Shown: positions 4,479-56,807, counted from the stretch's first letter. The stretch is 64,000 nt of DNA from an uncultured Mycoplasma sp. (GCA_945947035.1 CAMEXD010000003.1:19760-83759), one strand, 5' to 3'. Program-made: numbers and translations. Notes: generated from the letters alone by a model not told the origin.

Positions 4479-4562
4479 GATTTTTATATTTTTTACTATA
4501 TAAATTTATTTTTTAATAATTATATCAAAAAATAAACCAAAAGAAAGAAAAATATTCTTGTT

Positions 4563-5723
4563 TTAATTTGTATTACCACGATATATCTTTATAAAACCAG
4601 ATTTTCCTGAATCTCCTGCATATTTTTCTATATTTGCCGATGAAGTTCCGTCTTTATTATAAACATCTCCACCTTTTCCTCCAACATTTCCACCAGTATA
4701 TCCTGGAGAACCTCCTGATCCTCCTACTGCTCTCGTTGTCCCTGACCATACTATATTTCGTTGTCCAATTAATCCTTTTTCTCCATTAATATTTTGATAA
4801 TTTCCTCCAGAAGCAACTCCACCTTCACCACAAGTATCCATGTGAGCTGTACTTGTGATATCTCCAGCATCTGTTCCACTTGTTGTTTGCATATTTGCAT
4901 ATGTTTCTTTTGAACTTTTAATTACTACCGAAGAAGTAGCACCAACGCCACCAATTGTAAATGTTATTTTATCCCCTTTATTTAACTTCACACGAGAATT
5001 AGCATAAGCTCCACCACCTCCACCATTTCCTCCATTAAAATAATAATGAAAAGGACTGGAAGAAGTATAAGTATGACCCTTGCCTCCGTTTCCACTTGAA
5101 CCGAATAATTCTATTTGAAAATATCCATTTTCTGGAGCAATAAATGTACCAGAACTTGTATACGTATCCATAAACACATATTCTGTTGGTTCTGGTGGAA
5201 AAGTTACAACATTTATATCACTACTTACATTAGATTCTTTGTTATAATTACCACTTTTATCTTGTATTGTATTAGCTTTTAATTTTATATTACCTGTTGT
5301 ACTTGTTTCACTTGAAGTTATAGTAATAATATATTTATAACCATTATCTATTTGTTCTTTTTCTATATTACTTATTGTTATATCTCCTGTTACCGTAAAG
5401 TTATCGCTTGTTAAAGTAGTATCAATTACACCAAAATTATCTGTACAATTCATAGTATAATTTGCATTACTATTTATTCCTATTTCTGATACATCAGGTC
5501 CATCTATTACACATACTGGTCCTTTTAAATCACTATAAACTATTTTTATACTATTTTCTTGTTCTACTTCATAACTAAATAAGGCATATGAAGTTAGTCC
5601 TACAAATGATAGTATTACAAGTATTATCGTTATTAATAAATATTTATTTATTATTTTCACATCGGTTAAGAGGAATCTTCTTAGTTTTTTAGCATACCCA
5701 CCATAGTTAATTTTTGTTTGCAT
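4563..5723 (-). CDS. Family member B: signal-anchored protein with Ig-like and glycine-rich domains, no homopolymer tract
   Basis: 386 aa, MQTKINYGGYAKKLRRFLLTDVKIINKYLLITIILVILSFVGLTSYALFSYE. The first ~185 aa are nearly identical to A. The Gly-rich domain is divergent, and the end GFIKIYRGNTN is the same. Confidence 0.85.
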   Translation of the reverse strand: MQTKINYGGYAKKLRRFLLTDVKIINKYLLITIILVILSFVGLTSYALFSYEVEQENSIKIVYSDLKGPVCVIDGPDVSEIGINSNANYTMNCTDNFGVIDTTLTSDNFTVTGDITISNIEKEQIDNGYKYIITITSSETSTTGNIKLKANTIQDKSGNYNKESNVSSDINVVTFPPEPTEYVFMDTYTSSGTFIAPENGYFQIELFGSSGNGGKGHTYTSSSPFHYYFNGGNGGGGGAYANSRVKLNKGDKITFTIGGVGATSSVVIKSSKETYANMQTTSGTDAGDITSTAHMDTCGEGGVASGGNYQNINGEKGLIGQRNIVWSGTTRAVGGSGGSPGYTGGNVGGKGGDVYNKDGTSSANIEKYAGDSGKSGFIKIYRGNTN

Positions 5724-52135: not shown

Positions 52136-54040
52136 CTACTTAATTGTATAACTATCTTCCAAAGAAAACTCTACATTTTCTTCAATCCATTCTTTTCTTG
52201 GTTCTACTTTATCACCCATTAAAACAGTAACTCTTTTTTCTGCTAAAGAAGCATCATCTATATTTACTTTAATTAAAGTTCTTGTTTTAGGATCCATTGT
52301 AGTTTCCCAAAGTTGATCAGCATTCATCTCACCAAGTCCTTTATATCTTTGGATTTCATACTTTGTTATATCTTTAGTCATATCTCTTAATTCATCATTA
52401 GTATAGGCATACTTTACTTCTTTACCAATAGTTACTTTAAATAATGGTGGCATTGCAATATAAAGATGTCCTTTTTCTACTAAAGGTCTCATGTATCTAT
52501 AAAAGAAAGTTAAAAGTAAACACTGAATATGAGCACCATCATCATCGGCATCGGTCATGATTATTATTTTATCATAAGCCATTTCACTTTCATCAAAACT
52601 ACTACCAGATCCTGCTCCTATAGTATGAATCATAGTAGCTATTTCTTCATTTTTTATTATATCTTCAAATTTTGCTTTTTCAGTATTAAGAACTTTTCCT
52701 TTTAAAGGAAGAATAGCTTGGAATGTTTTATCTCTTCCTTGTTTTGCACTACCACCGGCAGAATCACCTTCGACTAAGAAAAGTTCATTTTTACTTTTAT
52801 CCTTACCACTAGCAGGTGTTAATTTATCAGATAAAAGCATATCTTTTTTATTTTTTTTGCCTTTTCTAATCTCTTCTCTTGCTTTTCTTGCTGCTTCTCT
52901 TGCCATCTTACTTTTTAAAGATTTATTGATAATATCTGTTGCTACTTTTGAATTTTCTTCCAAAAAGAATGAAACTTTTTCAGATACAATAGATTCAACT
53001 ACAGTTCTTGCAATAGGACTTCCTAATTTTGATTTTGTTTGTCCTTCAAATTGTAATAAATTTTCAGGTATTTTTAATGATATAATTGCCGTTAATCCTT
53101 CTCTTACATCACTTCCATCAAATGATGTATCTTTGCCCTTTAAAAAATTATTCTTTTTAGCATATTCATTAAATACTTTAGTTAAAGCAGTTCTAAAACC
53201 AACTTCATGAGTTCCACCATCACCTGTTTTAACATTATTAACAAAAGATATAATATTTTCATTATATGTATCAGTATATTGGAAAGCAATATCTACTTCA
53301 ATTCCTTGTTTTGAGCCACTAAAATTACAAATTTTATGTAACACATTTTTATTTTCATTAATCATAGAAACAAATGATACAAGACCATCATCATAATGAA
53401 ATGAAACATTTTTATTATCCTCTTTATCTTCTACTTCAATTGTAAGATTTTTAATTAAAAAAGCACTTTCTTGCATTCTTTCAACAATTGTTGTGTACGA
53501 AAAATTAGTTGTAGAAAAAATTTCAGGATCAGGTAAAAATCTAACTGTTGTTCCTGTTTTATTAGTATTACCAATTTTCTTTAATGGAACTTCTACTCTT
53601 CCACCATTAGAAAACTTTATGTAATATTCTCCACCATCTCTTTTAATTACAACTTCCATCCACTTTGACAAAGCATTAACAACACTTGCTCCAACACCAT
53701 GAAGTCCACCAGACACCTTATAACCATCAGTTTCAAATTTACCACCAGCATGAAGTACTGTATAAATAACTTCAGGAGTTGATTTTCCAGATTGATGAAG
53801 TCCTACTGGAACACCACGACCATGATCTTCAACTGAAATTGATTTATCTTCATGTATCGTAATTTTAATATAATCTCCAAATCCATTTATTACTTCATCT
53901 ATTGCATTGTCAACAATTTCCCATACTAAATGATGTAATCCTCTTTTATCAGTAGAACCTATATACATACCAGGTCTTTTTCTTACTGCATCAAGACCTT
54001 CAAGAATTTTTATACTATTTTCATCATATTTAAGTGCCAT
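52136..54040 (-). CDS. parE: Type IIA topoisomerase ATPase subunit (ParE/GyrB family; probably topoisomerase IV subunit B)
   Basis: LEGLDAVRKRPGMYIGST, GLHHLVWEIVDNAIDE and a TOPRIM EGDSAGG. Not in the dnaA-gyrB context, hence ParE is preferred, but no parC/gyrA lies adjacent. Confidence 0.85.
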   Translation of the reverse strand: MALKYDENSIKILEGLDAVRKRPGMYIGSTDKRGLHHLVWEIVDNAIDEVINGFGDYIKITIHEDKSISVEDHGRGVPVGLHQSGKSTPEVIYTVLHAGGKFETDGYKVSGGLHGVGASVVNALSKWMEVVIKRDGGEYYIKFSNGGRVEVPLKKIGNTNKTGTTVRFLPDPEIFSTTNFSYTTIVERMQESAFLIKNLTIEVEDKEDNKNVSFHYDDGLVSFVSMINENKNVLHKICNFSGSKQGIEVDIAFQYTDTYNENIISFVNNVKTGDGGTHEVGFRTALTKVFNEYAKKNNFLKGKDTSFDGSDVREGLTAIISLKIPENLLQFEGQTKSKLGSPIARTVVESIVSEKVSFFLEENSKVATDIINKSLKSKMAREAARKAREEIRKGKKNKKDMLLSDKLTPASGKDKSKNELFLVEGDSAGGSAKQGRDKTFQAILPLKGKVLNTEKAKFEDIIKNEEIATMIHTIGAGSGSSFDESEMAYDKIIIMTDADDDGAHIQCLLLTFFYRYMRPLVEKGHLYIAMPPLFKVTIGKEVKYAYTNDELRDMTKDITKYEIQRYKGLGEMNADQLWETTMDPKTRTLIKVNIDDASLAEKRVTVLMGDKVEPRKEWIEENVEFSLEDSYTIK

Positions 54041-54137
54041 AACTACCATCTCCATTTTTTATTTTATCATATTTTTTATTATTTTCCAAATCAACTTTAC
54101 ATTTTTATTTATTATAAATATATTATTTTTTTATCTA

Positions 54138-54226
54138 ATCACGTTTTTGATACGAATTTTTGCAACAATTATCACGTTTTTGACACGACTTTTGAATTTT
54201 TTTCACACATTTTTGATAAATTATTA
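54138..54226. repeat. 33-bp tandem repeat array, left set (2 full copies plus 1 degenerate copy)
   Basis: ATCACGTTTTTGAYACGAMTTTTTGCAACAATT units begin at 54138 and 54171, with a degenerate unit at about 54203. Confidence 0.85.
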
Positions 54227-54254
54227 CAAAAAAAGAAGAAATTAATCTTCTTTA
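54162..54254. repeat. Direct repeat, left copy (93 bp), includes the stop and last 3 codons of the AAA gene
   Basis: Matches 55668..55761 with 3 differences that I can see. Confidence 0.9.
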
Positions 54255-55555
54255 ATTAAAAATGTTGCATATAAAGGAATTGACTTTATCTTATTTTTAG
54301 GATCATATCCAAAATCTTTAGTACTAATTCTAATTGAATATTTTGGATTATATTTTTCATTATAAATTTTTAAACTTTTTGATTGAGTACTATCTCCTGA
54401 TTTTACTTCTACTGGTATAATACCATCTTTAGTATATAGCAAAAAATCAATCTCAGCTTTATTATTATTTTTCCAATAATACAAATCAAAACCATTACAT
54501 ATTAATTGATTAGCAACATAATTTTCTGCAATTATTCCTTTATATAAAGAAATATTATCTGTTAAAATATCCTCAATATTAAGTTTTAAAATATTATTAA
54601 GAATTCCAACATCACTTAAATATAACTTATAAGTATCATAATCAACAAAGCCTTCAAGTGGAATTTCAGGAATTTTAACACATTTAGATCTAAGAACCAT
54701 ATTACTTGCTTCTAACCAATCAAGTGAAGTTTCATATTCCCTTTTTCTTGCATCTTTTGAAACATTAGAATATTGAAATTTATTAGAAAGATTAGATAAC
54801 TGTGACGGTAATGAATTGTATAACCTATTTATTTTTAATGATTCGGCATCAGATGTAACATACTTATCCATATCTTTAAAATATGAACTTAAAATATCTT
54901 TTAATATAGTTTTATCATATTTTATATAATCTCCATTTGTGTTTACCATATTATTTATACTTTCAGGCATGCCACCAGTAATTAGATAAGTTCTATAAAA
55001 TCCAATTGCTTTTTCATGAACACTATTAGATATTTGAGTATTTTTTTTATAACAATCTTTTATAAGTTCAATAAGACTATTTTGATTCATTGCCCATAAA
55101 AATTCTTCAAAATCCATTGGATACATATTAATCATTTTTACTTTACCGACGGGAAAAGAAAATTTACTTCTTTTTAATTTAACGCCTAAAAGTGAACCAG
55201 CACATATAATTCTTATGTTATTATGTTTTTCACAAAAATATTTAAGTTCAGAAATAAGTTTTTCTGACTCTTGAATTTCATCTATAAATAAAATTGTATT
55301 TTCTTCATCCAAATCAAAATTTAATAAAACTTTTAATTGAGCATATTTTTCATCAGATGTTAAAGTCGAATTATATAATTCAACGATATTATATTGTTCA
55401 AATAAATTTACATAAATATAATTCTTATATTCATTTTTACAAAATTTATCAATAATATAAGTTTTCCCACATTGTCTTACACCTAAAATCATTAATGGTT
55501 TTATAGTGTCATTATTCTTCCAAGCTAATAAATCATCATATATCTTTCTTTTCAC
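54242..55555 (-). CDS. AAA+ ATPase with a C-terminal PD-(D/E)XK-like domain (AAA_14/DUF4143 type)
   Basis: Walker A GVRQCGKT, Walker B ILFIDEIQ, and C-terminal AEIDFLL...IIPVEVKSGD. Confidence 0.8.
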   Translation of the reverse strand: MKRKIYDDLLAWKNNDTIKPLMILGVRQCGKTYIIDKFCKNEYKNYIYVNLFEQYNIVELYNSTLTSDEKYAQLKVLLNFDLDEENTILFIDEIQESEKLISELKYFCEKHNNIRIICAGSLLGVKLKRSKFSFPVGKVKMINMYPMDFEEFLWAMNQNSLIELIKDCYKKNTQISNSVHEKAIGFYRTYLITGGMPESINNMVNTNGDYIKYDKTILKDILSSYFKDMDKYVTSDAESLKINRLYNSLPSQLSNLSNKFQYSNVSKDARKREYETSLDWLEASNMVLRSKCVKIPEIPLEGFVDYDTYKLYLSDVGILNNILKLNIEDILTDNISLYKGIIAENYVANQLICNGFDLYYWKNNNKAEIDFLLYTKDGIIPVEVKSGDSTQSKSLKIYNEKYNPKYSIRISTKDFGYDPKNKIKSIPLYATFLIKED

Positions 55556-55610
55556 AAGTTACCACCTCATTTAAATGATATCATCTTTTTTCTGTTTTTT
55601 CAAGTCGTTC

Positions 55611-55733
55611 ATCACGTTTTTGATATGACTTTTCACAACAATCATCACATTTTTGACACGACTTTTTGCAACAATTATCACGTTTTTGACACGACTTTTT
55701 AATTTTTTTTCACACATTTTTGATAAATTATTA
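55611..55733. repeat. 33-bp tandem repeat array, right set (3 full copies plus 1 degenerate copy)
   Basis: Units begin at 55611, 55644 and 55677, with a degenerate unit at 55710. Confidence 0.85.
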
Positions 55734-55761
55734 TAAAAAAAGAAGAAATTAATCTTCTTTA
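55668..55761. repeat. Direct repeat, right copy (94 bp), includes the stop and last 3 codons of rmuC plus its terminator hairpin
   Basis: Shares GCAACAATTATCACGTTTTTGACACGAC...AAGAAGAAATTAATCTTCTTTA with 54162..54254. Confidence 0.9.
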
Positions 55762-56807
55762 TGTTCAATTAAATTAATATCTACTTTATTAATTGATTCA
55801 AATCTTTTGGTAATTTTATTAGTTGTTGTATGAATATCTTGAACATCTTTTGATACACTATCAATACTTTTTGATAATTTATCCCAACGTTCTTTATATC
55901 TTGAAAATTCTATTCCTAGTTTATTTAATTCTTCATGAATAATTGTTGTATACTTATCTCTTTCAATATTTTTAATAATCATTTCAATTACTGTAAGAGT
56001 TGAAATGAGTGTTGTAGGACTAGTTATCCAAACATGTTTTTTATATGAATAATCAATTATATCTGAGTGATATGCATTAATTTCTGCAAATATAGCTTCT
56101 GCTGGTAAAAACATAATTGCTTGATCTGTTGTAACACCATTTATTATATATTTATCATGGATAGCATCAATATGTTTTTTAACATCCATTTTAAACATTT
56201 TTTCATATTTTTCTCTTTCAATAACACTTAAATTTTTATCTACCATAAGACGATAATTTTCCAAAGGAAACTTACTATCTATAGCAATAGTTCCAAGAGG
56301 TTCTGGTGCAAAAAGAATTGAATCTGCAATATAACCATTAGGAAGTGTATATTGAAGTTTATAAATAAGATCATTTTCTGGACCAAATACTGATTCTAAA
56401 ATATGTTTTAAATTAACTTCCCCAAAAATACCTCTTGTTTTTTTATCAGTTAATATTCCTTGAAGAGAAACAATATCGTTAGATAAACTATCAATCTTTT
56501 TCTGTGCTTCATCTATTTTTGATAGTCTTTCTAAGACATTTATAAATGTTTTATTAGTTTTTTCAAAATTTTGATCAAGCCTTTCATTGACTCTTTCATT
56601 TATTTCTAAAAGTTTTTGTTCATTCTTTAATGAAAGATCTGAAAAATCTTTATTTAAAGAAATCTTAAGTTCTGATAATTCTTTAGTTAAATTAACTTCT
56701 AATTTACCAAGACGTTCTGTTATATTTGCCTCATTAATATTTTTTGTTAATGATATTATTGTAAGTATAAGTATTACAACCAAAATTCCTATTATTACAT
56801 ATTCCAT
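55749..56807 (-). CDS. rmuC: DNA recombination protein RmuC
   Basis: N-terminal TM, coiled coil, and an RmuC nuclease-like C-terminal domain (FAPEPLGTIAIDSKFPLENY). Confidence 0.88.
   Translation of the reverse strand: MEYVIIGILVVILILTIISLTKNINEANITERLGKLEVNLTKELSELKISLNKDFSDLSLKNEQKLLEINERVNERLDQNFEKTNKTFINVLERLSKIDEAQKKIDSLSNDIVSLQGILTDKKTRGIFGEVNLKHILESVFGPENDLIYKLQYTLPNGYIADSILFAPEPLGTIAIDSKFPLENYRLMVDKNLSVIEREKYEKMFKMDVKKHIDAIHDKYIINGVTTDQAIMFLPAEAIFAEINAYHSDIIDYSYKKHVWITSPTTLISTLTVIEMIIKNIERDKYTTIIHEELNKLGIEFSRYKERWDKLSKSIDSVSKDVQDIHTTTNKITKRFESINKVDINLIEHKED

Follow-up and report, generated by a model that had tools for sequence, protein, structure and literature searches.

A PDC-S01 ATPase-nuclease cassette bracketed by a direct repeat that joins rmuC sequence to a 33-bp-period array in an uncultured Mycoplasma sp.

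The cis-mobilisable elements of streptococci (CIMEs) have no integrase and sit between direct repeats where a conserved gene has its 3' end. Insertion with long target duplication was reportedly described for restriction-modification genes by Nobusato and coworkers in 2000. Inserts of that kind are shorter than 20 kb, have direct repeats longer than 30 bp and contain no mobility gene (Furuta, Abe and Kobayashi 2010, PMC2853133). Surveys rank PDC-S01 with the commonest defence systems predicted for bacteria and archaea and give its validation as pending (PMC12988326, PMC13356809); the literature that we found on the family deals with prevalence only, and contains no mechanism, regulation, operator array, mode of movement or validation. 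We have analyzed a PDC-S01 gene in a stretch of 64,000 nt from an uncultured Mycoplasma sp. (GCA_945947035.1, CAMEXD010000003.1:19760-83759), here called the window, with positions counted from its first letter. The gene is intact, encodes an ATPase-nuclease of 437 amino acids (54242..55555, minus strand; Pfam and PADLOC) and lies between rmuC and the topoisomerase gene parE, enclosed by two copies of a long direct repeat. The locus shows a genuine and sharply bounded polymorphism for the presence or absence of a PDC-S01 cassette, and its bracket contains the cassette's own operator-like array.

A sequence-only reading of the window had noticed repeats of about 93 bp with three small differences, and these were confirmed: 54162-54254 and 55668-55761 differ by one G/T change, one C/T change and one nucleotide in the length of a T-run. 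The true repeat is longer. Copy A, on the parE side, has 117 nt (54138..54254), and copy B, on the rmuC side, has 118 nt (55644..55761). The similarity survives proper alignment, with 112 identities in 118 columns (94.9%), and one extra 33-bp unit (55611-55643) lies beyond copy B. The next longest direct repeats in the 6-kb region have at most 31 nt at 70-80% identity, which excludes a chance origin for the 117-nt repeat. The 22-nt core of the repeated unit is confined to this locus in the 1.17-Mb assembly of the window's own genome (G000), a metagenome bin that is 71% complete. As had been claimed, the ATPase gene is the sole open reading frame (ORF) in the 1.39-kb insert between the copies, and no integrase or other recombinase gene occurs in or beside the insert. 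A 65-aa ORF running across the repeat matched no family. Terminal inverted repeats were not found (39 inverted pairs, all weak), and an insertion sequence or transposon was rejected, there being neither such termini nor a transposase gene.

Copy B begins with the tail of rmuC (55749..56807, minus strand, 352 amino acids; Pfam RmuC, E 1e-56), a conserved host gene whose last codons, K-E-D (55752-55760), and stop (55749-55751) lie within the repeat. A hairpin, AAGAAGA-(TTAATT)-TCTTCTT, followed by a T-run (55740..55759, minus strand; fold about -7.5 kcal/mol, z -1.95), has the stop codon in its loop and is likely to be the intrinsic terminator of rmuC; it is too AT-rich for the consensus terminator scanner. 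Beyond the T-run are a degenerate unit, U0, and the full units U1 and U2. Copy A repeats this order with KED codons, a stop, the hairpin (54233-54252), a T-run, U0 (54203-54220), U1 (54171-54194) and U2' (54138-54161). The last three residues and the stop codon of the ATPase come from copy A, so that rmuC (...IEHKED-stop) and the ATPase (...FLIKED-stop) both terminate in the repeat with a common hairpin and T-run, as the sequence-only reading, which wrote the hairpin as AAGAAGA-AATTAA-TCTTCTT, had said. Homologues of the ATPase end in ...FML, FCL or FCINK, and the ORF in the window reads smoothly into copy A and stops at the length expected from them. The HKED tail is native to rmuC, the products of which end in HKEDLRK and HKEDLHK in the relatives G001 and G006, and these two genomes show the left arm of the hairpin, too, to be native coding sequence of rmuC. 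The direction of copying was therefore from the end of rmuC to the end of the ATPase gene.

The rmuC-derived part of the repeat (three codons, stop, hairpin and T-run) amounts to about 27 nt, and the remaining 90 nt or so are the cassette's own array with its 33-bp period. The earlier claim that the repeat duplicates the 3' end and terminator of rmuC is thus right for the former part and wrong for the latter, which consists of array units. These units travel with homologous ATPases and are absent from naive sites, so the repeat spans a junction between host and cassette. This argues against a plain target duplication and for a head-to-tail joint.

Upstream of the ATPase gene the array comprises degenerate U0 and three units at a 33-bp period (55611..55727, minus strand; consensus AAAAGTCGTGTCAAAAACGTGAT), with U0 at 55710-55727 and unit cores at 55677-55700, 55644-55667 and 55611-55634. 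Homologues with 72-83% identity elsewhere carry two or three copies of the unit AAAAGTC.T..CAAAAAYGTGAT at 32-33-bp spacing; all of these copies precede the ATPase gene and lie on the sense strand. At the nucleotide level, homology of these loci to the window starts inside the array and stops 9 nt before the stop codon, where the rmuC-type KED-stop begins. Our wider survey covered 78 family members with 31-80% identity from Bacilli, Clostridia, Bacteroidales, Verrucomicrobia and one archaeon. A period of 32-33 bp was the best tandem period in the 260 bp upstream at 49 of the 78 loci, strongly so at 39; the corresponding counts were 8/74 downstream, 6/80 far upstream and 4/78 (none strong) in shuffled sequence. 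An upstream array that is family-wide and above these controls must be part of the cassette. The sequence of the unit varies with the protein, units being less alike the lower the identity of the proteins. The array is most likely the docking and autoregulation site (operator) of the ATPase itself, where the winged-helix domain predicted by structural modeling would bind. A search for the unit in public genome contigs gave no match, and one in public metagenome contigs gave six chance matches without related genes.

G000 contains two further PDC-S01 paralogues, at C2:58972-60243 (L007, 40% identity) and C13:5352-6614 (L008, 31%). Upstream of either gene there is a repeat with a 32-33-bp period, distinct in sequence and peculiar to that gene, and the paralogue with 31% identity is conserved throughout the genus. 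Among the family-level genomes, the closest homologue (L043, G010:C5:16155-17462; 72%) has three perfect units upstream and an in-frame TAA, and is probably a pseudogene.

Three states of the site between rmuC and parE occur within the genus. We looked for rmuC in about 40 relatives (it is present in 33 of 41) and screened its flanks with the window's proteins. In the naive state, found in G003 and G007, rmuC is followed by parE across about 60 bp that contain a different hairpin and no units. G000 has the occupied state. The closest species, G005, likewise a metagenome bin, shares 95.4% nucleotide identity with G000 over 5.3 kb and 98.9% amino-acid identity in ParE. It has a solo repeat between rmuC and parE (locus L039, 209-398), consisting of a KGD-stop, the same hairpin, a degenerate U0 and one full unit. 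No close homologue of the window's ATPase was found anywhere in G005, which has only a paralogue of about 32% identity. The sequence-only reading had predicted that an empty site would have a single repeat copy where rmuC adjoins the topoisomerase gene, and such a one-copy site does exist in the closest relative. It is nevertheless a scar rather than an unoccupied target. The G005 copy carries cassette units and thus spans the host/cassette junction, and the junction "unit | AGATAAAA..." is common to copy A and G005 and continues in both into the same parE upstream sequence, so that it predates their split. The condition under which the sequence-only reading would have been refuted, that related genomes all carry the gene, does not hold: G003, G007 and G005 lack it at this site.

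The distribution of the gene is patchy. Its best match within the genus has 50% identity and lies at another site; the best matches in relatives have 72% (in another genus, with the in-frame stop) and 58%. A large protein collection holds hundreds of homologues at 79-83% identity from rumen and gut metagenomes, located after rplQ in rumen and gut bins, adjoining ISL3 or IS91 transposase genes, or at contig ends. Plasmids and phages yielded only distant homologues, with at most 42% identity. These data agree with the earlier interpretation of the ATPase gene as an insertion, in the form of a lineage-specific, horizontally acquired single-gene insert. The 80-83% clade (L165-L174, L079, L080 and L164) occupies a constant position behind rplQ, where the rpoA-rplQ operon ends, in many rumen and gut metagenome contigs, most of them short. 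An insertion hotspot downstream of rmuC across the genus was considered and rejected; the neighbors in G002 and G004 are ordinary core genes (SufBD, competence-type pilins), and synteny merely differs. In the sister species G006 (L013), a non-coding insert of 307 bp with no Rfam match lies between the copies of a 34-nt direct repeat (94%; 784-817 and 1125-1158), which takes in the stop region of rmuC.

The PADLOC PDC-S01 model matches the window's ATPase over its full length (PDLC04786, E 1.3e-146, residues 1-435), and Pfam gives AAA_14 (91.5 bits) followed by DUF4143 (119.3 bits), both above the gathering score. DUF4143 has been placed in the PD-(D/E)XK superfamily (PMC3424549). All of the motifs named in the sequence-only reading are present: Walker A GVRQCGKT, Walker B DE at 92-93, EIDFLL at 368-373 and PVEVK at 381-385. 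Residues G25-K31, D92, E93, D370, E383 and K385, which are invariant in a 44-sequence alignment, are all found in the window's protein. The product is still best regarded as a predicted ATPase and nuclease, with an AAA_14 ATPase domain and an intact PD-(D/E)XK motif. An AlphaFold model (pLDDT 92, pTM 0.92) had as its best fold matches the archaeal AAA+ ATPase SSO1545 and Orc1/Cdc6/ORC subunits (2fna, 2qby, 1fnn); no homologue was detected by sequence among solved structures. The model fits an AAA+ domain, a lid and a winged helix (about residues 236-313), followed by a C-terminal PD-(D/E)XK domain. From its family assignment, the gene is a candidate anti-phage defence gene. A predicted promoter, TTGAAA-17-TATCAT with a TG extension (55575..55603, minus strand; 10 of 12 matches), lies 7 nt downstream of the last unit and is followed by the ribosome-binding site GAGGTGG and a GTG start.

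We think it probable that the locus is a horizontally acquired one-gene cassette with a 117-nt head-to-tail joint, and that the gene is lost by host recombination with no dedicated recombinase. The cassette would consist of the operator-like array with its 33-bp period, its own promoter and the PDC-S01 ORF, and would have been gained immediately after the stop codon of rmuC in the line of descent that led to G000 and its sister species. The bracket would then be the head-to-tail joint of a 1507-bp segment (rmuC KED-stop, hairpin, array, promoter, ATPase gene), of which the locus contains 1.08 tandem copies. Such a joint could result from a tandem duplication that was then partly deleted, or from a copy that became circular and re-integrated by Campbell-type homologous recombination. 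The second copy would supply the ATPase with its last three codons, stop and terminator, and would place a copy of the array upstream of parE. Homologous recombination or slippage between the copies may remove the gene and leave one copy behind, as in G005, and either the repeat or the neighboring genes rmuC and parE may later serve for a homologous exchange that restores the occupied allele.

Repeat brackets also occur around PDC-S01 genes elsewhere. The threshold was set by a reversed-sequence control, which reached 26 bits at most; above it, 5-6 of 73 homologue loci had the gene flanked by direct repeats of 17-75 nt. As a general trait of close relatives the brackets were rejected, since none was found at the 25 loci of the family-level set and those of the wider set are a minority. 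The survey of homologue neighborhoods for the same repeat, which the sequence-only reading had proposed, was positive for units upstream of the 72-83% homologues and showed bracketing repeats at only those 5-6 loci. In a Bacteroidales bin (L162), the last 75 nt of an upstream, co-oriented GGGtGRT gene bracket a PDC-S01 cassette (2657-2731 and 4492-4566); in relatives this site is sometimes a single copy without cargo and in one case contains the same cassette. The end of the same gene in L198 (178-292 and 1528-1642) forms a 115-nt bracket around a Gp49/HigB-like and HTH_3 toxin-antitoxin pair. The end of the GGGtGRT gene, then, hosts alternative small cassettes in repeat brackets in Bacteroidales bins. 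In a Clostridia bin (L150, 1745-2865), an MNT and HEPN toxin-antitoxin pair directly upstream of a PDC-S01 ATPase is bracketed by a duplicated array region. A block of about 55 nt that comprises an array bearing a palindrome and a promoter is present on both sides of a 41%-identical ATPase in L136 (2933-2967 and 4322-4356, plus flanks).

Some of these observations are what would be expected of a classical insertion with long target duplication, in which a single entry into a G005-like site in the G000 lineage duplicated about 117 nt of ancestral target. The brackets at L162 and L146 are pure host sequence. At the window's locus, the features listed by Furuta et al. 2010 are present apart from the cargo (over 30 bp of repeat, one copy in a relative, no mobility gene), and copies A and B are closer to each other than to the G005 copy, as expected for a duplication after the split. 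We nevertheless consider this explanation rather unlikely, as the target would already have held units of this ATPase clade, which otherwise occur only upstream of such genes and are absent from G003 and G007. A target that already had cognate units would itself be a relic of earlier occupancy, and in that form the explanation folds into the one that we favor. An assembly artefact, with a metagenomic contig misjoined through a short repeat, would be in keeping with G000 and G005 both being bins but is very improbable. The two copies can be told apart by six positions and one unit, typical reads are longer than the repeat, and the ORF runs into copy A without a break to its expected end. The public assembly GCA_019973115.1 is 100% identical over 9.3 kb, which also speaks against an artefact, with the qualification that it may derive from the same reads.

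The two remaining explanations invoke an enzyme. An element that moves itself, with the ATPase-nuclease docking on private 33-bp arrays on both sides, bringing them into synapsis, and cutting and rejoining the DNA for excision and re-insertion, would account for a putative binding array in direct orientation on both sides of the gene in the window and in L136, for the combination of an Orc/Cdc6-like AAA+ winged-helix module with an intact nuclease motif in one protein, and for the recurrence of brackets in the family. If this were so, PDC-S01 genes would be autonomous one-gene mobile elements, and host genes such as parE would end up behind a copy of the operator as a side effect. We judge it improbable. 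Only about 2 of 75 loci have arrays on both sides, the brackets are mostly located outside the array, and to our knowledge PD-(D/E)XK nucleases have no ligating chemistry. Moreover, a toxin-antitoxin pair without an ATPase occupies the same bracket type at the same site as a PDC-S01 cassette, which favors mediation by the host over catalysis by the ATPase. Slightly more improbable still is a CIME-like remnant, in which the repeats would be attL and attR at the 3' end of rmuC and a tyrosine integrase would act in trans. In its favor, the direct repeat restores the 3' end of a conserved gene, as is usual for att sites, and among the four PF00589 genes on other contigs of G000 there are two of phage type (one with a stop) besides two of Xer size. 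However, no integrase-bearing element was found downstream of rmuC at any of the 30 loci examined in relatives, and there is no spare DNA for decayed parts of an element between the repeats and the gene. The identity block of 117 nt is also 5% diverged with a variable number of units, and brackets elsewhere range from 17 to 115 nt.

Several points weigh against a horizontally acquired cassette that is lost by host recombination. The route to one full unit plus 117 nt would take two steps in every version that we could formulate. Copies A and B are 96.5% alike over the first 85 nt shared with G005, and each is about 87% identical to the G005 copy; a bracket older than the split would have to be reconciled with this by gene conversion, by exchange of the allele with another strain or by rapid change in G005. 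RecA can use repeats of 117 nt at 95% identity, but they are poor substrates for it. Both genomes were recovered as metagenome bins, so that a collapsed or strain-mixed assembly is possible. Finally, both protein binding to the units and anti-phage activity are putative.

The genes around the cassette are all on the minus strand, in the order DedA/VTT protein, rmuC, AAA_14 and DUF4143 ATPase, and type IIA topoisomerase B subunit. The sequence-only reading had called the last of these simply the topoisomerase gene. NCBIfam equivalogs refine the name to parE (topoisomerase IV subunit B; 52136..54055, minus strand; Pfam), not gyrB: the match to TIGR01058 (1005.8 bits) is above its cut-off, and that to the gyrB equivalog is below. 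There is no adjacent parC or gyrA, and rpsD lies downstream of parE in convergent orientation. The predicted parE promoter, TTGATT-17-TATGAT (54066..54094, minus strand), is common to G005, G003 and G007, and in the window its -35 box is 42 nt downstream of the copy-A array (54138-54220). If the ATPase binds its units, transcription of parE could be influenced by this array. No match to RNA families was found in 53800-56000. A compositional sign of foreign origin was not found, the insert having 22-24% GC, the same as its flanks. No functional tie between the ATPase and RmuC was found except adjacency; a weak match to RTasRmuC was rejected, being explained by the shared RmuC domain alone.

With naive, scarred and occupied alleles of one site within one genus, the locus is a compact natural experiment. 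It suggests that the cassette travels as an array, a promoter and an ORF, and that a repeat bracket permits loss, and possibly regain, of a gene without an integrase. It also cautions that an apparent empty site can be a scar that retains the operator of the cassette. Movement of the long-target-duplication kind would be extended from restriction-modification genes to another nuclease-encoding defence candidate, and the 33-bp units provide concrete DNA sites for work on binding and regulation.

In its relation to known systems, the window's unit resembles CIMEs in having direct repeats at the 3' end of a conserved gene and no integrase. It differs from them in that no related integrase-bearing element is found at the site and in its repeat, which is long, diverged and partly the regulatory array of the cargo. 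As in the formation of solo long terminal repeats (LTRs) and other repeat-mediated deletions, recombination between flanking repeats would drop the interior and leave one hybrid copy, although here the unit is a bacterial single-gene cassette and the repeat is not the terminus of an element. The presence of a modeled AAA+/winged-helix protein beside phased direct repeats that vary with the protein recalls Orc1/Cdc6 with origin recognition boxes and plasmid Rep proteins with iterons; unlike these, the window's ATPase has an additional C-terminal nuclease domain, shows no evidence of a role in replication and is only presumed to bind its repeats. The protein itself does not differ from PDC-S01 as defined in PADLOC, a single-gene unit with an ATPase and a PD-(D/E)XK domain (COG1373). 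The likeness to long target duplication by restriction-modification genes lies in a small defence-type unit without a mobility gene, flanked by direct repeats that vary in length and exceed 30 bp, with one copy in a relative. As in the H. influenzae examples of Furuta and coworkers, the repeat overlaps the 3' end of a host gene, and the brackets at L162, L150 and L136 also match this type of insertion (PMC2853133). The window's locus departs from it in three respects: the cargo is a single PDC-S01 gene rather than a restriction and modification pair, about two-thirds of the repeat (about 90 of 117 nt) is the array of the cassette rather than pre-existing target, and the single-copy relative bears a scar rather than a virgin target.

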